64,000 bases of DNA from a virus (Duplodnaviria; Caudoviricetes): the IMG/VR virus record IMGVR_UViG_3300027754_000037. One strand, 5' to 3'. A program made the translations under genes and the position numbers. Below the pieces are notes generated by a model. The model ran no database searches. It was not told where the DNA came from and worked only from the letters and a program-made list of their open reading frames with translations. Each line of letters starts with the position of its first letter. The stretch's first letter is position 1. Positions 9,719 to 56,236 of this stretch are shown here, in pieces.

Positions 9719-10495
9719 ATGGAACAAGACAGACTTATTTGCGAACACATATCTGTTTCCAGAAAGCAGACATGGAACGAATGTCAACAAAAGTATAAAT
9801 TTAGATATCATTTAAAAATGATTCCAGAAGGTCCTGAACAACCCTACTTCACCTACGGAAAAGTTGTTCATAAAATAGCAGAAGTTTTTGTGCAGGAACA
9901 AGGTCAAAGAACAATTGATGAAATCGCATCAGATGTGCTTGCCGGAAGAATTGAATATCAAGAAGGTATTGGCAAACCAAGTCTTGGTCGTGAATACATG
10001 AGTAAATTGCCTAGCCACATCAGAAACATCAAAGAAATTACTGAAAAAATCGGTTTCGATGGAGAAACAGAATGGCAATTCAAGTTTGACTTACAACCTC
10101 CTGACAACCATATTATCACAGGTTTCATAGACCGTTTGATTGTTCGGGGCGAAAAATATTTCATTCTCGACTACAAAACCACCAAAAAAGGCGGATGGCG
10201 AAAAAACGCCAACACCATCAAGAAAGACCTGCAACTCAGGTGTTATGCAAGGGTTGTACAAAAAAAATTCGGTGCTAAAGCAGAAAATATCAACTGCGCC
10301 CTGTATTATCTTGAAGGTGGTGATCTTGTAAGTGCGAAGTTTTCAGAAGAATCCTTAATTGCAGCAGAGCAAGAAATGCACGATACCTATAAGCACATCA
10401 TTTCCACGCATCCAGATGATGTTTACGGCATGGTTGGCAATCATTGCCACCGATGTGACTATATGCAAGTTTGTCCATCACGCAAGCTTATTTGA
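9719..10495 (+). CDS. PD-(D/E)XK exonuclease (RecB/AddB/Cas4-like)
   Basis: SVS...ECQQKY, GKVVH, GFIDRL, ILDYKT, QLRCY, C-terminal CHRCDY..VC (four Cys, possible Fe-S). Confidence 0.85.
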   Translation: MEQDRLICEHISVSRKQTWNECQQKYKFRYHLKMIPEGPEQPYFTYGKVVHKIAEVFVQEQGQRTIDEIASDVLAGRIEYQEGIGKPSLGREYMSKLPSHIRNIKEITEKIGFDGETEWQFKFDLQPPDNHIITGFIDRLIVRGEKYFILDYKTTKKGGWRKNANTIKKDLQLRCYARVVQKKFGAKAENINCALYYLEGGDLVSAKFSEESLIAAEQEMHDTYKHIISTHPDDVYGMVGNHCHRCDYMQVCPSRKLI

Positions 10496-11384
10496 TAGGA
10501 AATAAAATCAAACCCTGAGTAGGCAAATCTGTTCCTCTGTTGATAATCGGCAGTTTATCTGCAATTCCAATCAACACCTTTTGCTCTAACAAAAAGACAT
10601 AGTCTTTTTGTTTCTTCCAGAAACTGTGAATTGCAAATAGAGGTGTGAAAAATCCCTTACCAGTACCATCACGATATTGAGTTCCCCAACAAGTACCGAT
10701 ATACTGACCTTCGTCGTTCATCAAACCGCCACCAGACCTGCCGGGACGAGGGCTATTCTTGATGGTGACCAAATCATTACCAATGATACCAACCATTTCG
10801 ATGTCATAGTGAGCGACTTCAGAACCGGCATCACATCCGCATGAATGAGAGTGCTGTCTACGCACATACTCATAATTTTCAGGACCAATAGGAAAACAAT
10901 TTGGAACCCAATCTGGAGTGAATGTCACGAGCCCAGTATCTTCCTCTGCCCCTTCAATAAACCTGTAGAATATGACATTTGCATCGTAACTTCTTGGAGC
11001 ATCAAGTTTTAGGTCATTGTGATACCAAACAATTATCTTACATTTCAATTTCTTTTTTTTACCCTCTTCTGCGGTCATCACACCATTCCAAAGGTGGCCA
11101 CAAGTTGCAACATACGCAAGATTCTTCTTTGCATCGTAGTGGACTATGGTTCCAGAGCCTGAACCAGCAGCTACTGCTATTTTGACCGAAGGGGCGAGGA
11201 ATTTCCGAAACTCTATGCCACGCTTGGCTATAGGTGCGGGACTTTCGTTGCCGACTGGAATACTCTCCAGAATCGGCATGTTGTCTAGCGGGTCTTTGTC
11301 CAAAAACTTCAAAGTGTTCTGAGAATTCAAGTTTCCTGTCAGGCACAGGCAGGCAAAAAGACTGTAAATAAGTTTTTTTAACAT
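10488..11384 (-). CDS. Exported trypsin-like (S1) serine protease
   Basis: N-terminal hydrophobic signal; ATCGH (His), EDTGL (Asp), GRSGGGL (Ser). Confidence 0.85.
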   Translation of the reverse strand: MLKKLIYSLFACLCLTGNLNSQNTLKFLDKDPLDNMPILESIPVGNESPAPIAKRGIEFRKFLAPSVKIAVAAGSGSGTIVHYDAKKNLAYVATCGHLWNGVMTAEEGKKKKLKCKIIVWYHNDLKLDAPRSYDANVIFYRFIEGAEEDTGLVTFTPDWVPNCFPIGPENYEYVRRQHSHSCGCDAGSEVAHYDIEMVGIIGNDLVTIKNSPRPGRSGGGLMNDEGQYIGTCWGTQYRDGTGKGFFTPLFAIHSFWKKQKDYVFLLEQKVLIGIADKLPIINRGTDLPTQGLILFPIK

Positions 11385-11415
11385 ATAAGCCCCAAAAATT
11401 AACTATAATTTATGT

Positions 11416-11883
11416 ATGTCTAAGGAAAAAAGAATCATGCCCACACTCACGGTTTGTCACTATTTGTATTTGACTCGTGAACAAAGATATGCGCTGCATG
11501 AAGGGCAGGAGCTTGAAGTCACAGGCATCACAGTTCCTGTCTGGTTTCATAAAGGAAACACCTCAGAACCCGCTCAGGAAATTTTCTGCAAATACAAGCT
11601 CACAAATGACAGACAAGGCACACGAGTTCTCAATAATGCCGAAGGCTATGAAATCAATATGCCTTCAGTAGAAGTTAAAAGCGAAGATATTGATTCTGAA
11701 CTAATTAAAAGCGTTCAAAACAAGCTAGGAACAACCGAAAGGCTGCTGGACCAAGAGGATGGTGGACTGGAATGGTGTGAATTTAAATTTTTTCAAAAAA
11801 TGCAAATCGAAAACAAACAATACTATAACATTCATTTCGTAGAAATTAAACCCTTGCAGATTTTAACCGACACTCTCGGTTAA
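11416..11883 (+). CDS. Hypothetical protein
   Basis: 155-aa ORF filling the space between divergent and convergent neighbours. Confidence 0.65.
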   Translation: MSKEKRIMPTLTVCHYLYLTREQRYALHEGQELEVTGITVPVWFHKGNTSEPAQEIFCKYKLTNDRQGTRVLNNAEGYEINMPSVEVKSEDIDSELIKSVQNKLGTTERLLDQEDGGLEWCEFKFFQKMQIENKQYYNIHFVEIKPLQILTDTLG

Positions 11884-12401
11884 ACATCGTGTAACTGGAC
11901 TGACATCTTCACATTGATGGAATCTCCGCTGACCAAGCTCAGCGCCTGCGTCAAAGGAACAGATGCAATAAGAATACCAGAACCCGCAACAGAACTGGTA
12001 CACATGAAAAGATTTAAAACCGTCAATCCAAAGTTGCCTGTCGCCGTAAATGTGATGACTTGACTATTCGCACGATAAATGGATGGGGAAGTGCCAGTAG
12101 TTTCAAAAACAAAACCGTTCTCAGAACTTACGGCCTGCCTTGCATAACCACCAGAGTTGGGTTCCTGACCACTTAAACTATTGACAGTATCAGCATAGGC
12201 TAAAGTGGACCTACCATCCAAGCCGAAATAGTAACTTCCGGGGGGAGTATCCAGCGTTCCTTTGGCAAAAGCGCATTTCAGAATAAACTGTTCACCTAAT
12301 GTGTGAAGCATATTGGTGAGATTCTCTGCTTTCCAAATCACCTCGCCGTTACGAACATGATTTACTTCCAAGATTTTTAGAATGCCGTGCCAGTCGCTCA
12401 T
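11880..12401 (-). CDS. Putative tail/baseplate-associated structural protein
   Basis: N....G...IL..F...YxGL...GGYARQAV...ITFTA..FG....F......G.L pattern typical of small phage tail proteins. Confidence 0.55.
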   Translation of the reverse strand: MSDWHGILKILEVNHVRNGEVIWKAENLTNMLHTLGEQFILKCAFAKGTLDTPPGSYYFGLDGRSTLAYADTVNSLSGQEPNSGGYARQAVSSENGFVFETTGTSPSIYRANSQVITFTATGNFGLTVLNLFMCTSSVAGSGILIASVPLTQALSLVSGDSINVKMSVQLHDV

Positions 12402-12928
12402 GTTTTCCCCAGCTTATATTTGTTTTTTTGTCCTGTTTTAATGGAGTATACCAGCGCATCAATTGGAAATTTGCGCCCACAAAATTGCTGATTTTCCACA
12501 AATTCTTTACCGCAACCTTTTTTCAAATAAGCAATTGTGATATGAGGAATATACTTTGGAAAATCTGGTTTATTTATGATATTTTTAAAAAGTTGTTTAT
12601 TCAAATTAAGAATTTCATCATCAACAACCTCTATCATCAATACATCAAATTTTGAATTCTGAGTAAATAATTTTATTTTACCAAGTTGACAGGATGTATT
12701 TTTACAACTCGATATCGTTTCCGATACATTTTTTTCAGTATCTTCTATGCAACCCAAAACTGTTAAATGCACATATTCTTCACGACCAAATGAATGGTCT
12801 TCAGAATCGTAGTAAATATCACTTTCCTGCACATAGTCATAACACCATGATATTATGTCATCTGCAAGTGTTTCTGACACTTCTGCTATGATGTAAGATT
12901 TTTCAAATATTGGCTTACCCGAACACAT
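12398..12928 (-). CDS. 2H phosphoesterase, Acb1/T4 57B-like
   Basis: Two HxT motifs (GREEYVHLTV, YIPHITIAY); likely start 12928 within track ORF 12398..12991. Confidence 0.8.
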   Translation of the reverse strand: MCSGKPIFEKSYIIAEVSETLADDIISWCYDYVQESDIYYDSEDHSFGREEYVHLTVLGCIEDTEKNVSETISSCKNTSCQLGKIKLFTQNSKFDVLMIEVVDDEILNLNKQLFKNIINKPDFPKYIPHITIAYLKKGCGKEFVENQQFCGRKFPIDALVYSIKTGQKNKYKLGKT

Positions 12929-13244
12929 TTTGCATCTCTTGGTTATCAGGCAAATCAAAACTCTGTGACTTTTTCTTCTGAATATCTTCAAGTTTGCGCT
13001 TTTCGTTCATGAGCTCATTTTCGATATTCTGTAATACATTTACAGAGCTTTGCGAAGATACAAGCTTGTTTTCTTTTCTCTCCAGCCTTTGCTTTTGCCT
13101 GCTGCCTCTCTTGCTCTCCACATTTTCGACAACCTGCAAAGCCTTGCTCAATAAACCTCTGACTTCTTGCAAAGCAAAATCTTCAGGGATGTTTTTTAAG
13201 GCTTGTAAAATACAAATTTTTAATCCAGCCGTGTTATTTTTCAT
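12915..13244 (-). CDS. Hypothetical coiled-coil protein
   Basis: Likely start MKNNTAG with AAGG SD. Confidence 0.65.
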   Translation of the reverse strand: MKNNTAGLKICILQALKNIPEDFALQEVRGLLSKALQVVENVESKRGSRQKQRLERKENKLVSSQSSVNVLQNIENELMNEKRKLEDIQKKKSQSFDLPDNQEMQNVFG

Positions 13245-14215: not shown

Positions 14216-16066
14216 TTACCACCCGAACTCTTTGAGTATTTTATGAGCACGCCTCTGTTGAGTCATAACGACCCCAGACATATAGTTTTCATTATCTGGT
14301 GCTAAAATATCTAACTCGCTATCCATTAAAATTTCCTCTGGCCTACCTTCAAGCAATTCTCTTTTTATATCTTCATACACCTGAGCTTTGACTATCGGCA
14401 TAGGCAATGTAGCTTGACCTCCCACGGGCAAATCTCTCAACATAGAATCACGAACAAACAATCCAATGCACATCGCCATGATAGCATCATCGTGCTTGCC
14501 CTTTTGTGCCTGAGCTTTTCTTGCAACCTTATTGAATTCAAAGGTTTGCAACTCGGTCACAAATCTCATGCTATTGATGCGAAGAGTGCCATTCAAAAGT
14601 CTGCTTTGCAAACTTTCCAAATACAAAGAGCGATTTACCTGACCAATTTTTACTCCGGGTTTAGCATTTGCTTTATTTGATTCAAAATAAAGATTGTCAT
14701 ATTGTAAGCTATGCTGCAAAGCACTTAGGACTGCACCTCCGGGACCCATATTCTCTACAACAACTAGAGAATTGTAGTAGTAAATTGCAACTTCTTTTAC
14801 TACCTGAGCAAATTCATAAGGCACAATTATATTGCTGTAAAATTCAGCAACCTGCTCTAGAGTTGCCGTATCAACTATGTGAAATACGCTGCTATCATTA
14901 TTTTCGCCCTGACCTTCAGCGCAGTCGGCACTCAAGATATATTCGTGTCCATCAACTGGTTCTTTCCAAACCCACAAAGCGCCTTTATTTAAATCATCGT
15001 CCAACTGTGAAATACGACCTATTGGATTGCTCCATTTGGCAAACATCTTTCTGCTGGGATTATTGCTCCTACATTGTTCAGTCAAAGATGTGATTACACT
15101 TGTGGGAAAATATGTTTCACCCGAACCTTGAAACTCACGCAAAACCTCTTGACGAAAACCCTTCTCGCCAAGCTGCGCCTTTTGTTCTGCTACCCAATCT
15201 TCATCGTTGTAGTCTGGATGTTGCCAATAATCCAAATCAATAATATTGAAACGATTGTTGCCTTCTCTTGCATCGTGATATGTTTGTTCATACCAGTTTC
15301 CCAAACCATTGACCGTCGAAACCAAGGTGCAAGAACCACCTGTTGACAGGATAGGCCACATAGCCTTCCAATGCTTCTCCATGTCGTCGATGAACGCTGC
15401 TTCATCAACTATAAGAAATGTAACGGACTTACCACGAGCAGCTTCGGGTGAATAAAACTTGCAGACAGAACCAGTATCCGTAAACATTTTCAAGTGGTCG
15501 TTCCACTTGGCATCTTTTCTAGGCTTCAGCCATTCGGGCATGTTTTCACATGATCTGTCAACCATCATGCCAATATCTGTAGCTTCACGGTCGGTCTTTG
15601 AGATCAACATGATCTGCTGATCTAACTGAAACATGCAACGCCACAAACCCCACAACAAAGTAACTGTTGTCAGACCTCCCTGCCGGAATTTAGAAATGAT
15701 GTTGAACCTATTTTTCTCATAATCATGAATGGTTTTTTTCTGATATTTGAATAAAATAAATGGAATCAAACCCCGCATGGGATGCAAAATCTTGACATAC
15801 TTATGACAAAAATATGAAAAACTTTCAGTACACTTGATGATTTCCTTTTTTCTGCGTGCTGTATCATAATTTTCAACGGCATCCATCGGCTCATCTGGAT
15901 CGATTTCAAGCTCACATTTGTTGAATTCGTAGTATCGTGGATCAAATTCATAACGACCAGTATTTGGGTACATGTTTCCACCCAACTGGTAATATTCTTT
16001 CAAAGATTTGAAATTGCCACGCCAAACTGATTCCTTGACGCTTTTAAAAAATGTTGGCTGATCCAC
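14216..16066 (-). CDS. terL: Terminase large subunit, T4 gp17-like
   Basis: PFILFKYQ, KFRQGGLTT (Walker A), LIVDEAAF (Walker B), STVNG, ADCAEG, HDDAIMA nuclease motifs; no intein. Confidence 0.95.
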   Translation of the reverse strand: MDQPTFFKSVKESVWRGNFKSLKEYYQLGGNMYPNTGRYEFDPRYYEFNKCELEIDPDEPMDAVENYDTARRKKEIIKCTESFSYFCHKYVKILHPMRGLIPFILFKYQKKTIHDYEKNRFNIISKFRQGGLTTVTLLWGLWRCMFQLDQQIMLISKTDREATDIGMMVDRSCENMPEWLKPRKDAKWNDHLKMFTDTGSVCKFYSPEAARGKSVTFLIVDEAAFIDDMEKHWKAMWPILSTGGSCTLVSTVNGLGNWYEQTYHDAREGNNRFNIIDLDYWQHPDYNDEDWVAEQKAQLGEKGFRQEVLREFQGSGETYFPTSVITSLTEQCRSNNPSRKMFAKWSNPIGRISQLDDDLNKGALWVWKEPVDGHEYILSADCAEGQGENNDSSVFHIVDTATLEQVAEFYSNIIVPYEFAQVVKEVAIYYYNSLVVVENMGPGGAVLSALQHSLQYDNLYFESNKANAKPGVKIGQVNRSLYLESLQSRLLNGTLRINSMRFVTELQTFEFNKVARKAQAQKGKHDDAIMAMCIGLFVRDSMLRDLPVGGQATLPMPIVKAQVYEDIKRELLEGRPEEILMDSELDILAPDNENYMSGVVMTQQRRAHKILKEFGW

Positions 16067-16119: not shown

Positions 16120-17253
16120 ATGCGCAAATTACAGATAACCGCCCTTGTTTTAGCAATAGTATTTCTTGTTGTTTTACTAAGTAAACCAAGCAACAAGCAT
16201 GAGCCAGTCGAGCGGATTCAAAAGCCAGAAACCAAAAAAGAACTACCTCCAGAGGAGAAAAAGCCTCCAGTTGCCACCGTTGAGGAAGCTGTAAAAAAAA
16301 TTGAAAGACAACCTTTAAAAGAGAATGTTGAACTTCTAGCATCGGATAAATTTGAAGGCAGAATGTCTGGCAAGAATGGTAATAAGCTGGCAGCATCACA
16401 TGTCAAAAAGAATTTTGAATCAATAGGACTGCCCACAGAATATCACAAATTCCCAATTCGCAGAACTAACCCCGGACCCAATAACGAAGTTGGCGATGCG
16501 TTCTCACAAAATGTATATGCTTGGATCGAAGGAAATGATGAGAATCTAAAAGATGAAGTTGTGGTTGTTGGTGCGCACATGGATCACATCGGTTATGGAC
16601 CATCCATGAGCCGTTGGGGAGGAGGCAAAATACATCCCGGTGCCGACGACAACGCAACCGGAACAGCAGCACTCGTGGAAATTGCCCGTGCCTTCAAATA
16701 TCTTGAAGGACAAAACAAGAGAACTGTGGTTTTTATGGCTTTTTCTGGTGAAGAAATGGGCTTGTTAGGCAGTTATCACTATGTCAACAATCCCCTTTTC
16801 CCCAAGGGAAATCCAGATATTACTAAGCATGTATTTATGCTGAACATGGATATGATTGGATATTTAAATCAAGGTAAAACAGTTGCTTTTGAATCAAATG
16901 AAAGTTCACCGGATATCGGTTCAGCAATAAATGAATTGTCAAAAAAATATGCGTTTGCAAAAACCGTAACACTTAGAGGCGCAAGTGGAAGTGATCATGC
17001 GCCTTTCTATAATAAAAAAGTACCAGTAGCTTTCTTACACACAGGACTTCACCCTTACTACCACACTCCCAAAGATACACCGGATAAAATTAACTACGAA
17101 GGTCTTGAGAAAGTTGCAAAATATGGCTTTGAATTGGCTTGGAATGTTTCTAATGCCGATAAAAAACCAGCATTTGACTACGGTTCATTCAAAGAAATGG
17201 ACTACAGTCACGACCACGGCCAGAAAGACATGCAATTTGGAGATAAGCCATGA
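16120..17253 (+). CDS. Membrane-anchored M28 family aminopeptidase
   Basis: N-terminal TM; GAHMDH, GADDNATG, SGEEMGLLGS, NMDMIG, SDHAPF, YHTPKD. Confidence 0.92.
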   Translation: MRKLQITALVLAIVFLVVLLSKPSNKHEPVERIQKPETKKELPPEEKKPPVATVEEAVKKIERQPLKENVELLASDKFEGRMSGKNGNKLAASHVKKNFESIGLPTEYHKFPIRRTNPGPNNEVGDAFSQNVYAWIEGNDENLKDEVVVVGAHMDHIGYGPSMSRWGGGKIHPGADDNATGTAALVEIARAFKYLEGQNKRTVVFMAFSGEEMGLLGSYHYVNNPLFPKGNPDITKHVFMLNMDMIGYLNQGKTVAFESNESSPDIGSAINELSKKYAFAKTVTLRGASGSDHAPFYNKKVPVAFLHTGLHPYYHTPKDTPDKINYEGLEKVAKYGFELAWNVSNADKKPAFDYGSFKEMDYSHDHGQKDMQFGDKP

Positions 17254-17684
17254 ACCTTGAAACTATGCTCAAACTTATGAATGAAGACCTCCATCGTGAA
17301 TGGTCACACATGAGGTTTTACTTGTATCACGCCAGCAAGGTTGTGGGATTGCATTGCCATGAATACAAGGAACTTTTCCTTAAAGAATCGGCAAACGAAA
17401 TGGGCCATGTCACAGAATTTTCAGATATGATTGTCGGTTTAGGCGGTTCAATCGTTAATGGTTGGGGAGATGAGCAAATTCCTGACCTTGCTACTGCCAA
17501 AGATATTATTCAGCACGCTCTGAAGATGGAATCTGAAGTTGTTGACAATTATGTCAAAAGAATGGATCAGGCTGTTGAGTTGGGTGGCACGGATGGCACT
17601 TGGATTGAAATATTTTATGAAAAGCAGGTTGAACACAGCAGGGAAGATGTCGATCACTTCCGGCAAATATTGCGTGGCGTTTGA
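17250..17684 (+). CDS. Ferritin-like / bacterioferritin-like protein
   Basis: E(18)..FY..H, ESANEMGH, E.EVV..Y, EHSREDVDH di-iron pattern; ATGA coupling to M28 gene. Confidence 0.8.
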   Translation: MNLETMLKLMNEDLHREWSHMRFYLYHASKVVGLHCHEYKELFLKESANEMGHVTEFSDMIVGLGGSIVNGWGDEQIPDLATAKDIIQHALKMESEVVDNYVKRMDQAVELGGTDGTWIEIFYEKQVEHSREDVDHFRQILRGV

Positions 17685-19334: not shown

Positions 19335-19853
19335 TTACATGAAAAAGAGAATATAGCCCAAACCAATAATTTGAGCAGCAATAACAACCAAAAGCAATTT
19401 GTCCATCATGGACATACCATCCTTTTGTGGTTTTGTCATGTTTTCAAGTTCCTCCGCTAAACCTAAACTTTTAACAACTTTTTTGGGAGATTCAGTTTTA
19501 GCTGCTGCCAAAACTTTGACTTCCTCCTTGTTCTTAAAGGAGCCCAAAACTGCAAGGAGCTCTTCTTTGGTCACAAAGTTGCTCTCTCCACCCTTGGTTC
19601 CAACAAGTGCTTCAATCTTTTCCTCCACGACATTGCCGCTCACAGGGTCAACGACCTCAATCTTGCGCTCATACAACATCGGCTTGGTGCGCTCGATGAT
19701 GCGTTGTTGCAATTTCAAAGGACGCTCGTCCTCAACATGCAACTCAACAATTTTTTCTCCTTGCCCATCGGCATTTTTGATCTCAACGACTCTGCGCTCG
19801 GCTCTTCTGCCGTCTTCCAAAGTCCACTTTTCTACCTTCAGATTATCATCCAT
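19335..19853 (-). CDS. C-terminally anchored membrane protein
   Basis: Likely start MDDNLK; C-terminal TM LLLVVIAAQIIGLGYILFFM. Confidence 0.7.
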   Translation of the reverse strand: MDDNLKVEKWTLEDGRRAERRVVEIKNADGQGEKIVELHVEDERPLKLQQRIIERTKPMLYERKIEVVDPVSGNVVEEKIEALVGTKGGESNFVTKEELLAVLGSFKNKEEVKVLAAAKTESPKKVVKSLGLAEELENMTKPQKDGMSMMDKLLLVVIAAQIIGLGYILFFM

Positions 19854-19887
19854 TTTTACTCCCTTTGACTCGTAGGATGTGCTACAC

Positions 19888-20294: not shown

Positions 20295-20816
20295 TTAAGT
20301 AAGTCCCCATTTAGATTTGAATTCATCAAAAATTTCCTTTCTTTTCTTATCTGCTTCTTCAATCATTTTCTTGCGTTCAAGTGGTTTCTGCCGCCTCTCA
20401 ATCAACTTGGCCGACTTGTAAAACGATTCTGCGCTTTCTTCCCAGACACCCGGAGCAAATCTCTCCAGTTCTCCAGCGATTTCTCGATATACTTTTCTCC
20501 CTTCAAATTCTACTACAATTTCTTTGTTGTAATGATGAACAAATATGGAAAGATTCGTTCCACGAGATAACCCGTCAAAATGCAAACCTATCTCATAACT
20601 GTTGTCGTCCTCCTCTAAAGTCGGTAAACTTTCATCCATAAATTCGGCAGCAAAAGGGTCTTCCAAAAAAGTTTGTTTATAACAACTACTGCCCTGCTGC
20701 AACACAGACTCTCCCAATCTTCGTGCTATGGCTGAAAACTTGCCCTCCATGCCCGTGTAGCCCTTCTTCATGGCTTCGGTAGTCCTCGCCTCTCTCAACC
20801 TGTCTTCACGATTCAT
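20295..20816 (-). CDS. Hypothetical protein
   Basis: 173 aa, GAGG SD. Confidence 0.7.
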   Translation of the reverse strand: MNREDRLREARTTEAMKKGYTGMEGKFSAIARRLGESVLQQGSSCYKQTFLEDPFAAEFMDESLPTLEEDDNSYEIGLHFDGLSRGTNLSIFVHHYNKEIVVEFEGRKVYREIAGELERFAPGVWEESAESFYKSAKLIERRQKPLERKKMIEEADKKRKEIFDEFKSKWGLT

Positions 20817-20872: not shown

Positions 20873-22573
20873 ATGATAAAAGGATTGATCAATTGGCTGA
20901 TAAGAAAAAAAGACCAAGTAGTGCAAGGATTGGCAATCGCTACGCCCAAAGCGTCTCCAAAACCAGTTGTAGCAACAAATAAAACATACCTTGTTGATGC
21001 ATCAGAGCCTCTATATGTAATCAACGAAACGATTACCGCAAACATTCTCCCTATGCGTGCCATTGGCGAAACTACAGGTGGACAAACCTTGGGCAGCATA
21101 CCCCAGCAGGCTTTGGCACTTCGTCAAATTGTCAACAATGCACTTTCCTACATGAAGTCCAAAAGCCCAAAAACAATCAATAAATGGGCTTCAACTTCCG
21201 CATTAAATCTCTATCCCAGAGCAGGCCAAGACATCAACGCATACTACGACAGAAGCTCACTCAAATTCTTTTATTTTAAAGACACAGTCAGAAATAAAAA
21301 TATTTTCGCATGTGATTCCAGAAGCGTTGTCGCCCACGAATTTGGCCACGCTTTTCTCGATATTATAAGACCAGACCTGTGGAGCCTCGCAGCACCAGAA
21401 GTCTGGGCTTTTCATGAGGCTTTTGGTGACATCACAGCACTTATTAGCGGCTTGCAATTTCCACAACTCATAGACAAGGCACTTGCCGACACAGGTTCTG
21501 ATCTCACTAAATCGAATGTGATCAGTAAATTGGCCATAGACATGGGTGTAGGGCTCTACAACCTCACCAATGGCACAGATGGCGAACTCAGCAACTGTCT
21601 TCGTGATCTTTCCATCAAGTTTAAATATGTAAAGCCAGAAACCCTTCCTACACATGGACCTGACAATATTCTCATCAACGAATCACACAACTTTAGCCGT
21701 GTTTTCAGCAGCATGTTTTACGATCTGCTTCTACGCATAATGAACAAAAACATCACCACAGGACAAACTGCTAAAGTTGCCCTTACAGCAGCCCGTGACA
21801 CAATCACGAGCTACTTCCTGCAAGCTTGCACAAAAGCAGCGGCTTCAACAAGATTTTTCAAATCTGTCTGCCAAGAAATGCTTCTCGCAGATCAAAGAAA
21901 TGGCAACAAATATCAGCAAATTATGACTCAATGTTTTACCGATAGCAAAATTACTACCGCTCCAATAGCCATGCTCAGAACCATGTCTCTTGAAGATGTT
22001 TTGAACAACATTAAAGACGAATATGAAATCGATGACGAAGATATGATCGTTGTCAGAACCACTTCTTCAAAAACAATCAAACTTGTTGATGAAGCAGGAA
22101 TTTTAGCCCTTCACTACAATCCTCTTCTCAGCGTTGAAGTCGAAATTGCTGCACAATCAGCCTACTTTTTTTCTCCCGAAGGACAGCTTGAGCATGTAGA
22201 AGAAACAACACATGCTGAAGTTGTTGAAGCGGCACTCAACTGTCTCAATCAACTGAATATAAAAAATTTGGTTGGAAATCACGACAAGGCTATTTTTGAA
22301 GTGATCAACAACAAACTTGTTCGCAAACAAATAGCATGTAGTTGCAACAAACCAAATTACTGCATTCCCGGTTCACCTGAATACCAAAAACCTTGGAAAC
22401 CCAAGAACAACTCAGGCTGCATCAAGTGCGGAAAAGGATGCGAACCCAAACCCTGTGACTGCGCTTCTCCTCCTGCTCCAACCCCTCCTAAAATTGGCTG
22501 TTACACCAAGGTAAGCACAGGGGGAATTACAAAATATTCAGTCGGAAGCAGCATTTCGAGGAAGGTCTGCTGA
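20873..22573 (+). CDS. M4/M36-type zinc metalloprotease with Cys-rich tail
   Basis: INAYY, VVAHEFGH (HExxH), FHEAFGD third ligand, ESH; Cys-rich last ~75 aa. Confidence 0.85.
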   Translation: MIKGLINWLIRKKDQVVQGLAIATPKASPKPVVATNKTYLVDASEPLYVINETITANILPMRAIGETTGGQTLGSIPQQALALRQIVNNALSYMKSKSPKTINKWASTSALNLYPRAGQDINAYYDRSSLKFFYFKDTVRNKNIFACDSRSVVAHEFGHAFLDIIRPDLWSLAAPEVWAFHEAFGDITALISGLQFPQLIDKALADTGSDLTKSNVISKLAIDMGVGLYNLTNGTDGELSNCLRDLSIKFKYVKPETLPTHGPDNILINESHNFSRVFSSMFYDLLLRIMNKNITTGQTAKVALTAARDTITSYFLQACTKAAASTRFFKSVCQEMLLADQRNGNKYQQIMTQCFTDSKITTAPIAMLRTMSLEDVLNNIKDEYEIDDEDMIVVRTTSSKTIKLVDEAGILALHYNPLLSVEVEIAAQSAYFFSPEGQLEHVEETTHAEVVEAALNCLNQLNIKNLVGNHDKAIFEVINNKLVRKQIACSCNKPNYCIPGSPEYQKPWKPKNNSGCIKCGKGCEPKPCDCASPPAPTPPKIGCYTKVSTGGITKYSVGSSISRKVC

Positions 22574-23005
22574 TTTGCGAAGCCTGTTCTTTAGACGAAC
22601 AGGCCTGCCCTCATCGTCATAATTAATTGTGTTTGTATTCGCATCAATCTGATGGTAGATAAGTTCTGCATAAGGCTTGTTACCCATAAAATTGATGCGG
22701 ATTTTTACTTCCGTGATGTGTGGTTTGGCTTCTCTAATCCTGATTTTAAATTTATCACCATCGCCAGCAACTATGTAATATCCATATGATGTTTCTTCTT
22801 CTTTCACAATCGGATAATTCAGTTCCTTTAGTGAATTCTTTGTGGCTCGATACATATTTTTAACTTCTTCGTTGTAATACTTGTGAGCCTCGCCATCTTT
22901 CCACATGATATATCCAGTTACTATTGGACCATAGATAAAAGAAGCGAAACTACAACCTGTTAAAGAAATAATTAAAAAATATAAAAATAAAACTATTTTT
23001 TTCAT
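22538..23005 (-). CDS. Lipoprotein, DUF3568-like
   Basis: Lipobox LTGC; Y.AT...LKEL...KIRI...TEVKIRI...G layout. Confidence 0.65.
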   Translation of the reverse strand: MKKIVLFLYFLIISLTGCSFASFIYGPIVTGYIMWKDGEAHKYYNEEVKNMYRATKNSLKELNYPIVKEEETSYGYYIVAGDGDKFKIRIREAKPHITEVKIRINFMGNKPYAELIYHQIDANTNTINYDDEGRPVRLKNRLRKSADLPRNAASD

Positions 23006-23489: not shown

Positions 23490-24206
23490 ATGAAAAGATT
23501 TTTTGCGTTTTTTGCTGCTGTTGCGACAGTTTTGCCTGCAATAGCACAAGCGCCATCAGTTGACGATATAAGAAATCGTCAATACCCAAATGTTTATCTG
23601 GCAGCAGACACTAATCCCATCGCAGCCATCGAAGGCGCTGTCGATGAAGATCTTGCTGATGTCATGGTCCCAGTTCCCATAAAGGATAGGGTCTTCAATA
23701 AAACCGGCATTCAATGCGTCTGGGCTTCTACAGAACTACTCGGCAGATATGCCGAAGAGCCTAAACTGATCGGACTTACCAACGATTCTGAATGCAAAAG
23801 CTACGCAAACACATACAGTTTTTCACGCAAAATGAAACAACTCAATGTCAAATTTGAAACAACCACGGACCCCCGTGACCGTAGCCTTATCATCAAAAGC
23901 GTTGTCAAAGAACGCCGTGGTTGCCTGTTCTGCATCCCCGGCCACGCTATGGTCTTAGTCCACTATGATGAAAAAAAAGGCATCGTTAAATATATCAACA
24001 ACAGCGATAGAAGCCTCGCTATCAGAACTTGGACTATGGCAGAATTCAACCGCCACTTCGATGGATGGGTTTCAGCAGTTTACGCTGATAACGACATCGT
24101 CCCCTTAAAATACACTCCTAAAATTCCAGACCTACCCATCATCGACCGTGGACAGGAAAAACAAGCTTACGACAAGGAATACATCCTGCAACCTTTGAAG
24201 CAATAA
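23490..24206 (+). CDS. Exported papain-like (C39-type) cysteine peptidase
   Basis: AGGAGG SD, signal peptide (..AIA), QCVWAS (Cys), GHAMVL (His), INNSD. Confidence 0.7.
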   Translation: MKRFFAFFAAVATVLPAIAQAPSVDDIRNRQYPNVYLAADTNPIAAIEGAVDEDLADVMVPVPIKDRVFNKTGIQCVWASTELLGRYAEEPKLIGLTNDSECKSYANTYSFSRKMKQLNVKFETTTDPRDRSLIIKSVVKERRGCLFCIPGHAMVLVHYDEKKGIVKYINNSDRSLAIRTWTMAEFNRHFDGWVSAVYADNDIVPLKYTPKIPDLPIIDRGQEKQAYDKEYILQPLKQ

Positions 24207-24209: not shown

Positions 24210-24244
24210 AAACCCGCCCTAAAAAGGCGGGTTTTTATTTTTTC
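24210..24244. terminator. Terminator between convergent genes
   Basis: AAACCCGCC-CTAAAAA-GGCGGGTTT followed by T-rich run. Confidence 0.8.
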
Positions 24245-24468
24245 TTGTCGCAATTACAGTCTTTTTTCATATAGCGAATCTTGTTTTTGCGGTTTTTTGC
24301 TGTAATTGGGAGTTCATTGTCCGAATATGTGGGAAATGCTCCCGGTGCAATCATTCTCTTGGCAACTCCATCGCCACCATCGCCCTCGTCCTCCACACTA
24401 GAAGGATCGTTGGCGCTCCCGCCAAACCACTCTTTTTTGTTCAGATAATCAAGGAAAGATTGCTTCAT
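24235..24468 (-). CDS. Small protein with CTS-like N-terminus
   Basis: MKQSFLDYLNKKE; basic C-terminus with CNC. Confidence 0.6.
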   Translation of the reverse strand: MKQSFLDYLNKKEWFGGSANDPSSVEDEGDGGDGVAKRMIAPGAFPTYSDNELPITAKNRKNKIRYMKKDCNCDKKK

Positions 24469-24509: not shown

Positions 24510-25580
24510 ATGAAAAACGATTTTTCAAAACTGATGCTGATTGGAATCTTATCCCTTGCCTTAGTCTTAATATTTAATCTAAAAACAAAGTCTTACCCTG
24601 AGCCTAAAGTTGCTCAGGTTCCAAAAAAAATAGTTCCTGAAGCAGGACCGCAAACATATCCAGAACCAAAATCTCCACAGATTTCCAACCCTATTCCAAA
24701 ACACCTCTCCTATCCTCAAACCGTCGAACAACTTAAAAATTGGAATAAAGAAGCTCCAGAACTCACAGAAGTTGGCATATACGGCCAATCTAAAAAGGGC
24801 ACAGACCTGTTTTATATTCGAGTCAATAATAAATTAGATAAAAATACCAAACCAGTCATTCTTATTACAGCTTGCATTCACGGAAATGAATCATGGAGCG
24901 CAGGTATCACTATGGGATACTTGGGCAATTTACTCAAGAATTATTCTACCGATCCCAAAATAAAAGCACTCATAAATTCTCGTGATATTTATTTTATTCC
25001 AGTTGTTTCTCCCGACAGTTATACCCAGCAGAGATTTGTTGATGGAGTTGATCCCAACCGTGACTTCCCCACTCCTAAAAACAAAACACACCAAAGCACT
25101 CCCAGCGTTGCTGCACTCCGTGAATTCTACTGGAAAATTAAACCACACGCAGTTTTGTCAGGACACACATACGGCAGGCTTTTTCTCATTCCTTACGGCG
25201 ATCAATATGGGAAAAATTCCAACCAATCTGATTATGATGCGATTGTTGGCAAAATGGCTAAAATGGCCAATTACAAAATGATTCATTGCGTTGAACTTTA
25301 CAAATCACCAATCGACGGTACTGAAGTTGACTGGTTCTATCGAAACGGCAGCTTTGCTGCTGTTATCGAATACGGCACCCACCAACACAAACCCAGTCTG
25401 CAAGAAATTAAAGACGAACTTAAGTGCACCCAAGATGCAATTACATATTTCATAGAAAAATCACCAGATATCAAAATTACTACGGTAGATAATGAAATTG
25501 ACTTTAGCCAGAACACAGGAATTGCAAAAGAATATCACCGCAACTCCGATGGTGCTCTAAAATCAATTAATCCTCACTAA
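24510..25580 (+). CDS. Membrane-anchored M14 zinc carboxypeptidase
   Basis: AGGAGG SD, N-terminal TM, CIHGNE (HxxE), VDPNRDF, SGHTYG, IEYG. Confidence 0.92.
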   Translation: MKNDFSKLMLIGILSLALVLIFNLKTKSYPEPKVAQVPKKIVPEAGPQTYPEPKSPQISNPIPKHLSYPQTVEQLKNWNKEAPELTEVGIYGQSKKGTDLFYIRVNNKLDKNTKPVILITACIHGNESWSAGITMGYLGNLLKNYSTDPKIKALINSRDIYFIPVVSPDSYTQQRFVDGVDPNRDFPTPKNKTHQSTPSVAALREFYWKIKPHAVLSGHTYGRLFLIPYGDQYGKNSNQSDYDAIVGKMAKMANYKMIHCVELYKSPIDGTEVDWFYRNGSFAAVIEYGTHQHKPSLQEIKDELKCTQDAITYFIEKSPDIKITTVDNEIDFSQNTGIAKEYHRNSDGALKSINPH

Positions 25581-36968: not shown

Positions 36969-37763
36969 ATGTCCACGAATAAGTACACACGCAAGCATTA
37001 CTACGAAACCAAAAAAGCTGCTGCTCCCGTTCATGCGGAGTCCTCATATGAATTACGAGCCGTAGTTCTGATCGATGATAACGACGACATTGTATTCTTT
37101 GAGGACCATCAAAGTTTCATAGCAAGTAGCGGTCAAAAAAGACTGTTTGATTTTTTGGTCACTTTGAGAAATGGCGATAAAAAAATAATCGAGATCAAAC
37201 CAAAAAAAAGACTCGGTCAATTTACGGAACAAATCAGAGACAATCGTGAATATGCTGCCTCCAAGGGCTGGCTGTTTGAGCTTTGGACTGAAGAAGAACT
37301 TGGATTTAGAGATAGCAAACAAATCACAAGCTGGGCTGATGAATTCATCAAACAGAGAACTGGAATAGATTATGGTGAAGTCCGTAGGCAAAAAACAAAT
37401 TTAAAAGCCAAGAGGCATTATCGTTCAAAAATAGCCAACGACACGGTGACGGTCTTCTGTGCATTCTGTAATGAGGAGCATCATCCCTTGAGGCTCACGC
37501 ATGGCCGTAATATCGCCAGAAATGGCCATTACATCTGCGAACGAGAGGGTGGCCACATAGCTGGGAGCAAGCCTAAAACCAGCCGTATAAAGGAAAATCC
37601 CTATGCTTCTGAGGGAAAGAAGAAGTGTGCTGGTGAGTGTGGTCAGATATTGGAGTTTGAGTGTTTTTCACCTGACAACAGCAAGCGTGATGGTTATTGC
37701 TCATCCTGTAAAGTTTGCAGGAGCGCCAAGGGCAAAAAGAGATATCACGAGAATAAACGGTAG
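36969..37763 (+). CDS. TnsA-like PD-(D/E)XK endonuclease with C-terminal Zn finger (probable mobile endonuclease)
   Basis: ESSYE, FDFLV...IEIKP, F.LWTE; C-terminal KKC..CG.....F.....DGY.S.CK.C; AAGGAGG SD. Confidence 0.75.
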   Translation: MSTNKYTRKHYYETKKAAAPVHAESSYELRAVVLIDDNDDIVFFEDHQSFIASSGQKRLFDFLVTLRNGDKKIIEIKPKKRLGQFTEQIRDNREYAASKGWLFELWTEEELGFRDSKQITSWADEFIKQRTGIDYGEVRRQKTNLKAKRHYRSKIANDTVTVFCAFCNEEHHPLRLTHGRNIARNGHYICEREGGHIAGSKPKTSRIKENPYASEGKKKCAGECGQILEFECFSPDNSKRDGYCSSCKVCRSAKGKKRYHENKR

Positions 37764-44038: not shown

Positions 44039-44349
44039 ATGAGAGCATTTTTAGTATTTGTTTTTGGGATATTATTGGTGGCAGAGGTTCAAGGTGGTCC
44101 TTTTGGCAGGCTTTTCAAGCGCAATCAACCACAGGTTAATCCTCCTGCCGAAAAGGTTGAGCCTAAGAAGGAGAATCCTAAAGTTGATTCCAAGAAAGAG
44201 CAGCCGAAGAAGGCAGAGCCAAAGTTGGAGGGTCGTCCTAAGAAGGAGGAGCCTAAGAAGGCAGAACCAAAGCCAAAGTTGGAGGGTCGTCCCAAGACCG
44301 AGGTTGCATCTCAGGCTATTCGCAAGGTTCCTGCGCCAAATTTCAGGGA

Positions 44350-44353
<4 letters not shown>
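44039..44353 (+). CDS. Exported Lys/Pro/Glu-rich protein
   Basis: Signal peptide; duplicated KKAEPK(PK)LEGRPK; GAGG SD. Confidence 0.65.
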
Positions 44354-44706
<353 letters not shown>

Positions 44707-51413: not shown

Positions 51414-51629
51414 ATGACCGAACAAAACGAAGACTGCTATTTTTGGGTTGACATTTCTCTGCCTGAGGCGGAGCGTGTCGTAAATGCCATGTGCGTCAAT
51501 TGTCATGACACCAATCCAACCAAGGGCTGGCTTTGGGAAGGATCGAATAGGGGTTACGGCCCCCACGAAATGACTTGTGATGTTTGTGGTCACATCATAT
51601 ATCAACCACCAGTTCTGAGGCCACAATGA
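51414..51629 (+). CDS. Small zinc-ribbon protein
   Basis: MCVNCH and TCDVCG. Confidence 0.65.
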   Translation: MTEQNEDCYFWVDISLPEAERVVNAMCVNCHDTNPTKGWLWEGSNRGYGPHEMTCDVCGHIIYQPPVLRPQ

Positions 51630-52381
51630 AGCAATTGCGTCCCATCATAAAATTAAACAACGAGAAGTATGCCTTGCGTGATTGGATTTTGTCGCAATTT
51701 CCAGAAAATTACGAGGCAATGACATATGTCGAACCCTACGGTGGCAGCGCAGACATTCTTTTTTGCAAAAACAGGTCCACCACAGAAATCATCAATGATA
51801 GAGATGTAGAAATCGTCAATATTCTGCGAGCGGTCAGAGATGAATCCAGCGAATTAGTCAAAAGGTTGAGCGCTTTTAAAACTGTTGCAGATGTCTTTGA
51901 AAAAGTAAATAAAAAGAAGAATTTTGATGACTATCTGGACCACGCCACTCACGACCTATACCTAAGAAAAATCAGCAGAAATGGAAATAAAAGCCAATTT
52001 TCTAAACCGAGTAGTCCTACAATTTGGAAGAATAACATCAAATCAATTAATGATTATAGCATAAGATTGCAAGATGTTTATCTTTTTTGTAAACCTGCTT
52101 TAGAAGTTATCTATGCTTTTAACTGTGAGGACACATTTTTGTATTGTGATCCATCGTATTTGATAGACAACAAGGTATCGAAGACGGTTTACACATCAGA
52201 TATGCCACCTGAAGATCATATTGAGTTGAGCAGGTTTTTGAATGACTTTTCTGGCAAGGTTGTTTTAAGTGGTGTGATGTCACCTTTATACGCCAGACTT
52301 TACAAGAATTGGAACATGTCGAAGAAGCGTATTGCGACAGGCAAAGAGAAAAGAACAGAGATTATCTGGAAGAATTTTTAG
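51626..52381 (+). CDS. Dam-like (D12) DNA adenine methyltransferase, variant catalytic motif
   Basis: YVEPYGGSA, EIIND.D, LYCDPSY, H.EL...L....GKVVLS, KRTE.IW.NF. Confidence 0.85.
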   Translation: MKQLRPIIKLNNEKYALRDWILSQFPENYEAMTYVEPYGGSADILFCKNRSTTEIINDRDVEIVNILRAVRDESSELVKRLSAFKTVADVFEKVNKKKNFDDYLDHATHDLYLRKISRNGNKSQFSKPSSPTIWKNNIKSINDYSIRLQDVYLFCKPALEVIYAFNCEDTFLYCDPSYLIDNKVSKTVYTSDMPPEDHIELSRFLNDFSGKVVLSGVMSPLYARLYKNWNMSKKRIATGKEKRTEIIWKNF

Positions 52382-53205: not shown

Positions 53206-53212
53206 ATAAAGC

Positions 53213-54104: not shown

Positions 54105-54840
54105 GAAAATCCTTGATTTCTTCGTAATTGGCTATTTTTTGATATAGATTTTCATCATTGAGTTTATTGCTTGGACCCATGATGTCCTCAAGATGTTGCC
54201 AATTAATTATTTTGCAATTTAGGAAATCAAATATTCTTTGTATTTCTGCTTTCCAATTATCTGAATATAAGTCCTCGTAATAGACTTGGATGCCATTTTT
54301 GATTTTATCTTCGTAAATTTTTATGAGTTCAAAATTTTTTTTTGTGATTTCTAGGTTGACAAGAGGAACTGAACCCATTCTTTCGTACAAAAGCTGTAAG
54401 TCTCTATCTCTGTTGTCTTGTCTGATTGAGCCATTTTTATTTCTTTTTGTGGCGTGCCAAATTTCACTAATTTTAGCAACATGGAATGATAGGGCAGCAA
54501 GAGCTAAATCTTTTCTGGTGAGAAAAATTACAGGGTATTTTTCAAGAATTATTTCATTATTGATTTGACTCAATTGCAAGAAAATATGTTTAAAAACTTG
54601 GCATTTTTGAAAAATTTGATTGAAAACTTCAGTTGGTTTTTCAGTTTGGATTAATTTTGTGAATATGTTATCGAATTTGTCATCGTTATTTAAACAATTA
54701 GCACGATTGAATGGTTCATCGAATACTGATATTCCCTGTGATCTAAGTGCTTCTAGAAGACTTCTGCTCCCTGCCCTGTAATGTGTAAAAATAACAAAAT
54801 TTTTACGATTTACATATAACATAATTGTTTGTCGATCCAT
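54049..54840 (-). CDS. Stf0-like sulfotransferase
   Basis: THYRAGS..L, DEPFN, IFLTRKD....LSF..A...W, VYYEDL. Confidence 0.75.
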   Translation of the reverse strand: MDRQTIMLYVNRKNFVIFTHYRAGSRSLLEALRSQGISVFDEPFNRANCLNNDDKFDNIFTKLIQTEKPTEVFNQIFQKCQVFKHIFLQLSQINNEIILEKYPVIFLTRKDLALAALSFHVAKISEIWHATKRNKNGSIRQDNRDRDLQLLYERMGSVPLVNLEITKKNFELIKIYEDKIKNGIQVYYEDLYSDNWKAEIQRIFDFLNCKIINWQHLEDIMGPSNKLNDENLYQKIANYEEIKDFLSQQPLVDSEQASEAQNS

Positions 54841-54882
54841 TTAAACATGCCACAATCATATATAACTAAACATGGAGGTTTT

Positions 54883-55302
54883 ATGCAAAAATCATTGACA
54901 ACAGATGAAGTGCAGGAAGTTTTAAAAAGATTACAGAATTTTTTAGAAGATGCCAAGGGGCAATGGGCGACTGAAAATCCAACATCTAGCTCTTGGGTTC
55001 AGATCAACAAAACCAACTTGGTGAATGTGACTGTCTTTTTGCTGAATAAGACTGACGATTTGATTCAGTATGTTGAAACATTTATTTCATATGGCCCTGA
55101 CAAGAAAGCTGCGGCTCTTCTTATTCTTGCCAAATTATTCGATTCAATAGCAGGTTCTGCTTTTCCTATTTGGATCAAACCTTTTGTACCTACTATCAAA
55201 CAAATATTGATCAATATTGTTCTGGGCAATTTGATTGACTTTATCGTTTCCAAGTACAAGGGTGGTTTTTGGAAAATGGAGCAAAATGACGCAACAAAAT
55301 AA
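54883..55302 (+). CDS. Hypothetical, possibly membrane-associated
   Basis: GGAGG SD, CATATATA at 54857..54864; amphipathic C-terminal helices. Confidence 0.65.
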   Translation: MQKSLTTDEVQEVLKRLQNFLEDAKGQWATENPTSSSWVQINKTNLVNVTVFLLNKTDDLIQYVETFISYGPDKKAAALLILAKLFDSIAGSAFPIWIKPFVPTIKQILINIVLGNLIDFIVSKYKGGFWKMEQNDATK

Positions 55303-56236
55303 CACCATAGGGCTTTTGCCTTTTATTCGTGAAGATGTCTTGAGTGTTCAAGATGTTCAGCAAAAATCTGGATGGGAGATCACGGCGTTTGATCTACCTA
55401 ACGCTTGGAATTTCACCGAGGGCGAAGGCGTTAAGGTTGCAGTTCTTGATACTGGAGCGGATTTAAATCATCCCGATTTGAAAGACAATTTGCTTCCGGG
55501 GAAGAACTTTGTCGATACGAATAATCCACCGCAAGATGATAACGGCCACGGCAGTCATGTATCGGGAATTATTTGTGCACTTAACAATGATTTAGGAATT
55601 GTTGGCGTTGCTCCTAAGGCTAAAGTCGTGCCTGTTAAAGTATTGGACAGCAACGGAAACGGGACCTTACAAACAGTAGCTGCGGGCATTCGTTGGGCTG
55701 CTGATGCTGGAGTTGATTTTATCACGATGTCTTTAGGATCTCCCGAACCGACTCCTTCGATACATAGTGCGATTGTTTATGCTGCATCCAAGGGAATTGT
55801 GACATTTTGCGCTGCTGGCAACGCTGGCCAGACTAGACAAATTTTTTATCCCGCAGCTTATCCAGAAGCTGTTGGTATTGGAGCGATTGATGAAAATTTT
55901 AATCGTGCGAATTTTTCATGTACTGGCCCCGACCTAGACTTCTTGGCTCCCGGTGTGAAAATTTTGAGCACAGTTCCCGTCAATTGGTACTCTGTATTGT
56001 CTGGTACGAGCATGGCGAATCCATTTGCGGTGGGCATTGCATGTTTGATGCTTTCTCACAAGCGCAAGCACAATTTGAAAATTAAGCTTGAAACAGCACA
56101 AGATTATATCGAAATGCTAAAAAGCTACACGATTCCCACCAGCGATCCTGAATTTGCTGGAAAACACTTCTTTGAGGGTTTTGGAATTATTGATGCACGC
56201 AAAATGAATGAGTGGATCAAAACCAACAAAGACTGA
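55286..56236 (+). CDS. S8 subtilisin-like serine protease
   Basis: VAVLDTG, HGSHVSG, AAGN, GTSMANP; no signal peptide. Confidence 0.95.
   Translation: MTQQNNTIGLLPFIREDVLSVQDVQQKSGWEITAFDLPNAWNFTEGEGVKVAVLDTGADLNHPDLKDNLLPGKNFVDTNNPPQDDNGHGSHVSGIICALNNDLGIVGVAPKAKVVPVKVLDSNGNGTLQTVAAGIRWAADAGVDFITMSLGSPEPTPSIHSAIVYAASKGIVTFCAAGNAGQTRQIFYPAAYPEAVGIGAIDENFNRANFSCTGPDLDFLAPGVKILSTVPVNWYSVLSGTSMANPFAVGIACLMLSHKRKHNLKIKLETAQDYIEMLKSYTIPTSDPEFAGKHFFEGFGIIDARKMNEWIKTNKD

Follow-up and report, generated by a model that had tools for sequence, protein, structure and literature searches.

Why should a huge bacteriophage carry six peptidases of six different families in addition to its own prohead protease? 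The question is raised by a 64,000-nucleotide stretch of DNA from an uncultured huge freshwater phage (IMG/VR record IMGVR_UViG_3300027754_000037), referred to here as the window, which samples only a small fraction of a genome of roughly 0.5 Mb and belongs to a very large phage with a T4-type head module. An initial annotation proposed that the six enzymes act together as an envelope-directed proteolytic system. Our analysis supports that proposal in part: four of them (S1-like, C39-like, M28 and M14), which have conserved, predicted export features and are linked in relatives, form a plausible envelope-directed set, and the other two, a thermolysin-like zincin and an S8 subtilase, have no signal peptide. 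The six peptidases form three groups: the exported enzymes, the core zincin and the separate S8 enzyme. Our explanation of the whole, to which we give a probability of roughly 55%, is an exported periplasmic proteolytic set alongside a cytoplasmic core zincin and an S8 enzyme of the intracellular subtilisin (ISP) type.

Six intact peptidases of six families

The six genes are as follows.

10488-11384, minus strand: S1-like peptidase with a predicted signal peptide or anchor; invariant triad, sub-threshold Trypsin_2 match
16120-17253, plus strand: M28 aminopeptidase, predicted to have an N-terminal membrane anchor followed by a stalk rich in Pro, Glu and Lys (Pfam, 154.6 bits)
20873-22573, plus strand: thermolysin/fungalysin-like zincin (M4/M36 fold, from the model); no signal peptide, Cys-rich C-terminal region
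23490-24206, plus strand: C39-like cysteine peptidase, predicted papain fold; predicted cleavable signal peptide ending ..AIAQA before P, C-terminal LPIIDRG...ILQPLK tail
24510-25580, plus strand: M14 zinc carboxypeptidase with a predicted N-terminal membrane anchor and Pro-rich stalk (Pfam, 94 bits)
55286-56236, plus strand: S8 subtilase, predicted ISP type, no signal peptide (Pfam, 178.6 bits)

The assignment of these genes to six non-capsid families holds: all six open reading frames (ORFs) are intact and lie where the initial annotation had placed them, their catalytic residues had been correctly assigned, and the earlier start codons chosen for four of them (16120, 23490, 24510 and 55286) are backed by alignments of homologues. 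Judged from their sequences, all six are real, intact peptidases. Pfam cut-offs are passed by the M28, M14 and S8 proteins and not by the S1-like, M4/M36-like and C39-like ones. In the M28 protein the metal-ligand motifs HMDH, DDNATG, GEEMG, DMIG and SDH align with those of the solved leucyl aminopeptidases 2ek8 and 1amp, and the nearest NCBIfam model is Legionella LapA. The M14 protein aligns with carboxypeptidase T, with HGNE, PNRDF, GHTYG, LY and IEYG all found, and the S8 protein matches thermitase (E = 5e-60) with its Asp, His and Ser intact (DTG, HGSH, GTSMA).

The three proteins that fall below Pfam cut-offs also have no match among PHROGs. For the S1-like protein the best Pfam score is 21.1 bits against Trypsin_2, under the cut-off of 27.6; the triad of His97, Asp149 and Ser217 (GRSGGG) is invariant across 19 phage homologues, and the region around the serine aligns with DegQ/HhoA, although a profile search against the PDB is weak (DegQ, E = 0.022). 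Sequence-only PDB searches with the zincin and the C39-like protein returned chance matches only. The C39-like protein, which has 249 homologues, matches neither PF03412 nor PF13529 in Pfam nor any other sequence family; Gln89-Cys90 (QC(90)VW), His166 and the NNSD motif (184-187; N184, N185 and D187) are invariant in 25 homologues. Its structural model matches the C39 double-glycine peptidases 6mpz, 3zua and PCAT1 in a Foldseek search of the PDB at probability 1.00, and its nearest named ESM Atlas clusters are C39_2/C39. The model places the protein in the papain-like C39 fold, with the Gln-Cys, His and Asp/Asn arrangement of that family.

Predicted and conserved export features in four of the six

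Export features were judged by hydropathy, manual reading and conservation in homologues. The signal or transmembrane N-termini first noted on the S1-like, M28, C39-like and M14 proteins are seen again by hydropathy and by eye, and they are conserved in homologues. In the C39 family all 25 sequences open with a basic residue and a hydrophobic core, followed by a site of the AxA type, and a predicted signal peptide or anchor is found in all homologues of the S1-like protein. The M28 and M14 homologues (28 and 13 sequences, respectively) begin with M-K/R and about 18-20 hydrophobic residues, followed by a low-complexity stretch of 30-60 residues rich in Pro, Glu and Lys and then by the catalytic domain, a predicted layout that is that of a membrane-anchored enzyme on a stalk.

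These features suggest how the four enzymes would be placed in the infected cell. The S1-like and C39-like endopeptidases would be freed into the periplasm by way of cleavable signal peptides, whereas the M28 and M14 enzymes would stay anchored in the inner membrane, with the Pro-rich stalk holding their catalytic domains in the periplasm. The cell would then gain phage-made endo-, amino- and carboxypeptidase activities in the periplasm.

A C-terminal tail shared by unrelated folds

The S1-like and C39-like proteins share a C-terminal tail of about 22 residues, encoded at 10488-10560 (minus strand) and 24130-24206 (plus strand), respectively. Its consensus, I-P-I-x-D-R-N-x-P-Q-G-x-Y-x-x-D-Y-I-x-x-P, is kept in both families, and the tail is modelled as disordered. 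A back-translated pattern of the tail gave 20 viral matches, all at ORF C-termini; 11 belong to S1-like proteins, 6 to C39-like proteins and 3 to a third family of about 305 amino acids.

L099, 8992-9903, minus strand: third tail family
L100, 4587-5489, minus strand: third tail family
L105, 1423-2337, minus strand: third tail family

Members of this third family have a signal peptide or lipobox together with GHG and QLSC motifs, and they find no match in Pfam; the motifs and an ESM Atlas lead hint at caspase-like C14/C13 peptidases, an assignment that we treat as a lead only. Loosening the tail pattern added one further viral locus only. We considered a host sorting signal as the origin of the tail and rejected it, as a search of 185,579 prokaryote genomes gave 3 chance matches, all in non-genic frames. 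Judging by its distribution, the tail seems to be a label specific to phages that is placed on exported endopeptidases whose folds are unrelated. Its recurrence on such folds suggests that at least the tailed enzymes have a partner, a destination or a means of control in common.

Linkage of the exported peptidases in related phages

Neighbourhoods were compared in two samples. For the first, 80 viral contigs were retrieved by means of the zincin and each gene of the window was compared, with 81 loci counted; the second consists of loci anchored on the terminase and is hence free of bias towards the zincin. Co-occurrence counts refer to 38 dereplicated neighbourhoods with full flanks and are not corrected for shared ancestry. 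The window genes that serve as landmarks in this comparison are listed below.

8.6-10.5 kb: primase and PD-(D/E)XK exonuclease
14216-16066, minus strand: large terminase subunit, TerL (Pfam Terminase_6N and PHROG 2)
17250-17684, plus strand: ferritin-like (Dps-type) protein directly 3' of M28 (Pfam Ferritin, 49 bits), kept in 60 of 81 loci
20295-20816, minus strand: conserved partner gene of 173 amino acids, divergent from the zincin; no family match
22538-23005, minus strand: DUF3568 lipoprotein with lipobox LTGC, between the zincin and the C39-like gene (Pfam, 47.6 bits)
26237-30013, plus strand: T4-type portal, 1258 amino acids, interrupted by an intein (Portal_T4, 224 bits; Intein_splicing, 68 bits; tblastn)

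Across the 81 loci the zincin, its 173-residue partner (79 loci), the terminase (71 loci) and the portal (60 loci) make up the stable backbone. At distances of up to 10 kb from the zincin the exported peptidases are found more variably (M28 in 37 loci, C39 in 35, S1 in 33 and M14 in 16), as is the DUF3568 lipoprotein (39), whose lipobox is kept in about 30 homologues. When they lie near the zincin, the exported peptidases always lie between primase/terminase and portal, down to a zincin identity of 31%, and M28 shows clean presence or absence adjoining TerL. At least one exported peptidase is present in 27 of the 38 full-flank neighbourhoods and at least two in 21. C39 and the lipoprotein accompany M14 in all 9 neighbourhoods that contain it; the lipoprotein co-occurs with C39, M14 and M28, and not strictly with S1 or C39. 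In the clade with TerL identity of at least 59%, S1 occurs in all 36 loci where the flank reaches.

The linkage expected from the window is borne out by a complete relative, G001, and the other large genomes show how far the set varies.

G001 (532 kb): all six peptidases, in the order of the window
G002 (572 kb): a group of M28, zincin, C39 and S1, with M14 and another C39-like gene at other sites; S8 absent
G003 (527 kb): M28, zincin and S8, with S1 and M14 in two copies each; C39 absent
LR756511.1 (595 kb) and G005: zincin only

Outside this clade the exported families are rare: among 50,697 GenBank phage records there is no C39-like or S1-like protein, and M28 and M14 are nearly absent. A megablast search of positions 16-26 kb against GenBank phages gave no match.

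A further gene of the same region, at 19335-19856 on the minus strand, encodes a tail-anchored membrane protein with a single C-terminal transmembrane segment (about residues 172-190). In the 38 neighbourhoods, S1 or C39 is present in 21 of the 24 loci that have it.

A core thermolysin-like zincin and its partner

The zincin has no match at E <= 0.01 in Pfam (PF01447, PF02868 and PF02128), PHROG or NCBIfam, and its neighbouring ESM Atlas clusters give M36/M4 leads in just 10-29% of members. Its structural model (predicted local distance difference test score of 80) is more telling: the top 30 Foldseek matches in the PDB are all M36/M4 enzymes at probability 1.00, with a best E of 4.5e-6 and TM values by target of 0.50-0.62. 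The zinc ligands H155-E156-H159 and E182 are invariant in 25 sequences, as are the motifs HEFGH, HEAFGD and NAYYDR and a distal His272 in 25 homologues. The protein is best modelled as having a thermolysin-type fold with HExxH and a downstream Glu. A search of viral proteins in BFVD with this fold gave a single significant match. The N-terminus is amphipathic, not hydrophobic, and no signal peptide is present. The C-terminal stretch of about 75 residues (22300-22573), which is modelled at low confidence, contains about 11 Cys, many of them invariant, and a conserved SRKVC end.

More than 245 full-length homologues of the zincin were found, on phage-like contigs of up to 603 kb. It is present in 32 of the 33 terminase-anchored loci that have sufficient flank and a terminase identity of at least 49%, and in the 33rd the partner gene stands at the edge of the flank; none of 23 loci from ordinary T4-like phages (terminase identity 27-29%) has it. 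The zincin is a core gene of the whole clade and belongs to the terminase-portal module. In the GenBank phage records it occurs in LR756511.1 only, apart from one 9.5-kb faecal contig with a weak match that covers 22% of the query.

In jumbo phages, conserved peptidases follow virion type while patchy ones probably target the host (Iyer et al. 2021, PMC7824862). By analogy, the zincin fits the rule for conserved peptidases and probably has a role in maturation. We picture it as a cytoplasmic core enzyme that would most likely process phage or host proteins during morphogenesis or takeover. The 173-residue gene beside it, adjacent in 79 of 81 loci, has no match in Pfam, PHROG, NCBIfam or the Atlas; its product is likely a functional partner of the zincin, such as an inhibitor, a substrate or a chaperone.

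Targeting to the capsid was considered for both the zincin and the S8 enzyme and rejected: neither has a leader like those of T4 internal proteins, which is seen on neighbouring genes, and no L/I-x-E site occurs near either N-terminus.

An S8 enzyme of the intracellular type

The S8 protein has neither a signal peptide nor a hydrophobic N-terminus. Its N-terminal NNTIGLLPFIRED aligns with the ISP motif of 7xr8 and 7y6m (and also 2x8j), with LLPF in place of LIPF/LIPY. As this N-terminus matches the short inhibitory extension of Bacillus intracellular subtilisins, the protein would be a cytoplasmic enzyme of a known type. Three of five large relatives have homologues, and annotated genes of a similar kind occur in 83 GenBank phages. 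In the window the gene lies 30 kb from the other peptidases. We regard it, by sequence criteria, as an ordinary ISP-type phage protease, predicted to be cytoplasmic and unlinked to the others.

What the exported peptidases may do

From the identities of the enzymes, their catalytic residues and export features, and the synteny and co-occurrence of their genes, we infer where they act, on what and to what end. The M28 and M14 proteins are, by homology, broad exopeptidases of the nutritional type that bacteria secrete; joined to two endopeptidases, they look most like a digestive cascade. The exported set would degrade envelope and periplasmic proteins and imported peptides to amino acids and so feed a long and costly infection, and the tailed endopeptidases may instead, or also, aid the breach of the envelope at lysis. 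Several observations weigh against this explanation. Part of the clade can do without the exported set, as LR756511.1 and G005 carry the zincin alone, and within 10-kb neighbourhoods S1 does not co-vary with C39, M28 and M14. The C39 fold is best known for the processing of leader peptides rather than for bulk digestion, and nothing connects the products of digestion with any uptake system. The co-occurrence statistics ignore phylogeny. The Cys-rich C-terminal region and amphipathic N-terminus of the zincin could mean a fate outside the cytoplasm. Digestion is nevertheless slightly favoured over lysis or egress, and exclusion of other phages and unrelated cargo rank lower.

The same enzymes could serve a protease-based lysis or egress, replacing or complementing endolysin and spanin by cutting stem peptides, cross-links or the tethers between outer membrane and wall, with the tail as a common wall-binding or regulatory module; we find this doubtful. 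The window was initially described as having no endolysin, and family scans of roughly 45 window proteins likewise found none, which is a weak argument given how little of the genome a 64-kb window covers. It gains some weight from the complete relatives, which are also without recognisable endolysin families bar M23. Nine records, among them three 100%-complete ones and LR756511.1, were screened in six frames with Pfam for 16 peptidoglycan-hydrolase or -binding families (GH24, SLT, Amidase_2, Amidase_3, GH19, GH25, GH108, M15_3, M15_4, VanY, NlpC/P60, CHAP, Hydrolase_2, Glucosaminidase, Lysozyme_like and PG_binding_1). The screen yielded M23 only, in 4 of the 9 records, and can be escaped by divergent enzymes; the controls for GH19 and GH108 gave no signal, which makes the searches for these two families uninformative. 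The complete genome G002, which has terminal repeats, has none of the 16 families. Missing Pfam matches in such a screen do not equal a missing endolysin, and no recognised endolysin family includes any of the four exported peptidases. The screen is thus compatible with a lysis role for the exported peptidases and is no demonstration of one.

Other evidence for lysis is the presence of S1 in every nearer-clade locus where the flank reaches, the position of the peptidase genes amid late-type head and packaging genes, and the single tail on three unrelated catalytic folds, which recalls the domain-swapping of modular endolysins. Peptidoglycan-active enzymes are also known with S1 (the alpha-lytic-type L1/L5 of Lysobacter), M14 (Csd4/Pgp1 and MpaA) and papain (NlpC/P60 and CHAP) folds. 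The structural neighbours of the C39-like protein are, however, leader peptidases and toxins rather than NlpC/P60 or CHAP, and those of the M14 protein are carboxypeptidases T and A rather than MpaA or Csd4. M28 enzymes require a free N-terminus, exopeptidases are unable to open the sacculus, and neither a holin nor a spanin pair is recognised beside the peptidase genes; LR756511.1 and G005, moreover, do without all four exported enzymes. A bolder version, in which the clade swapped a glycosidase or amidase endolysin for a Sec-exported protease toolkit of interchangeable S1, C39 and caspase-like domains under the tail, with anchored exopeptidases finishing the digestion, strikes us as unlikely.

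Superinfection exclusion or remodelling of the envelope would give the periplasmic peptidases, possibly with the DUF3568 lipoprotein, yet another task: to destroy receptors, transporters or the ejection proteins of incoming phages, or to trim the surface so that progeny do not stick to debris. Known exclusion proteins are located in the periplasm too (T4 Imm and Sp, and the lipoproteins T5 Llp and Ltp), and here the gene between those of the zincin and the C39-like enzyme encodes a conserved lipoprotein, which co-occurs with C39, M14 and M28. The patchiness and shifting copy number of the exported families among close relatives fit conflict genes, as argued in PMC7824862. Exclusion usually needs early expression, whereas the peptidase genes lie in the head and packaging region; amino- and carboxypeptidases would contribute little to the destruction of receptors, and we know of no exclusion protein from the S1, C39, M28 or M14 families. 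On balance, exclusion seems quite improbable. We give a slightly smaller chance still to the absence of any common function, with the enzymes as independent "morons" that piled up between terminase and portal at a hot-spot tolerant of insertions and the set as a by-product of location. Such an origin would suit the arrangement of the peptidase genes as small individual transcription units, which often diverge from those next to them, the clean insertion/deletion pattern of M28 beside TerL, the unrelated accessory genes of the same region (the ferritin-like gene, a weakly Acb1/2H-like gene and the portal intein) and the location of M14, S1 and C39 elsewhere in G002 and G003. Yet the same four families with export signals recur across wide divergence, to a zincin identity of about 31%, and they are well conserved, with identities of 60-75% for C39 in cases in which the core zincin has about 50%. 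The S1-like and C39-like proteins also share a specific tail that is absent from cellular genomes, and the near absence of these families from GenBank phage records argues that they are not common mobile cargo.

Other features of the window

Two further genes belong to the T4-type head module, the first of which is the "capsid" protease that is not counted among the six. Four other genes are listed with them.

32678-33337, plus strand: prohead maturation protease (PHROG 207, 160 bits)
35388-36824: major head protein
36939-37763, plus strand: TnsA-like endonuclease N-domain protein
51584-52381, plus strand: Dam-type N6-adenine methyltransferase
58547-59461, plus strand: phiEco32-like COOH-NH2 ligase
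59418-60185, minus strand: Prim-Pol

The best GenBank relative of the portal is that of LR756511.1, a 595-kb metagenomic phage, at 57% identity, and the portal intein (about residues 510-917) contains a LAGLIDADG-type homing endonuclease. The protein encoded at 12398-12991 (minus strand) has weak, sub-cut-off matches to the anti-CBASS protein Acb1 (22.8 bits) and to 2H phosphoesterases (22.3 bits). Between the C39-like and M14 genes lies a small ORF (24235-24468, minus strand) whose likely start, MKQSFLDYLNKKE, resembles the leader of many genes at 37.9-64 kb. A small protein encoded at 44350-44706 (minus strand) has an N-terminal transmembrane helix followed by a (Pro-Glu)n repeat, recalling the N-terminus of TonB, and the adjoining gene at 44039-44353 (plus strand) encodes a signal peptide. 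Two motifs gave no timing for the peptidase genes: the T4 late-promoter motif TATAAATA occurs 3 times in all, with none ahead of a peptidase gene, and ATATATA is enriched (14 versus 4.3 expected) yet not specific to these genes.

Comparison with known systems

Phage peptidases as a rule serve in capsid maturation, cut the wall as lysins or act in the cytoplasm during takeover of the host. Here, a clade of uncultured phages of 0.2-0.6 Mb keeps up to four unrelated peptidases that are predicted to be envelope-directed, two of them tailed, plus a core thermolysin-like enzyme encoded in the head and packaging module. If the set feeds the infection, it would represent a new auxiliary metabolic class, for the scavenging of nitrogen and amino acids, with a bearing on nutrient cycling in freshwater; should it open the envelope, it would amount to a new way of lysing the host and could supply new lytic enzymes. 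In both cases the tail would be a testable handle on a sorting or docking step.

Phage proteins that pass through the Sec system of the host and work in the periplasm are familiar from cyanophage PstS and PhoA and from Sec-exported or signal-arrest-release (SAR) endolysins. The exported set resembles them in its predicted use of this route during infection, and to our knowledge none of these examples is a multi-family set of peptidases or bears a shared tail. A literature search found no account of an exported multi-family peptidase set, nor of the tail, in phages. In a 2026 preprint on the envelope-associated proteins of huge phages, peptidases are named just as a frequent class.

Taken individually, each enzyme departs from its nearest relatives in a distinct way. 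The C39-like protein resembles the C39 leader peptidases (PCAT1, ComA and LahT150), which are with the stand-alone Peptidase_C39_2 enzymes its best structural matches, in its predicted papain-like fold and its Gln-Cys...His...Asp/Asn order; it differs in having no Pfam match and no fusion to an ABC transporter, and in having a predicted Sec signal peptide and the phage-specific tail. No gene for a double-glycine substrate is recognised near it. The M28 and M14 enzymes resemble the secreted M28 leucyl aminopeptidases (Vibrio/Aeromonas proteolytica AAP, 1amp; Legionella LapA) and carboxypeptidase T, respectively, in family, in metal and catalytic residues and in a predicted extracytoplasmic location, but they would be tethered by an anchor and Pro-rich stalk instead of being released, and in the M14 enzyme the segment around the Arg/Asn-Arg substrate-binding region is shortened relative to carboxypeptidase T. 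The S8 enzyme is like the ISPs of Bacillus (2x8j, 7xr8 and 7y6m) and the S8 enzymes of Bacillus and Staphylococcus phages in its triad and in having neither a signal peptide nor an I9 propeptide, and it differs in its carrier, a huge freshwater phage of a Gram-negative-type host. The zincin, finally, shares with the zinc endopeptidases of the thermolysin (M4) and fungalysin (M36) families, such as 4k90, 1ezm and 4tln, a two-lobed fold, as modelled, and HExxH with a downstream Glu; its NAYY edge-strand motif resembles the NAFW of thermolysin, and it has a conserved distal His as well. It differs from both families in having no Pfam match and 11-15% identity to solved enzymes, no signal peptide and no FTP/PepSY propeptide, and in having an extra C-terminal beta domain and a Cys-rich tail. 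Where the M4 and M36 families comprise secreted bacterial or fungal enzymes, the zincin is a core phage gene beside the terminase and portal.

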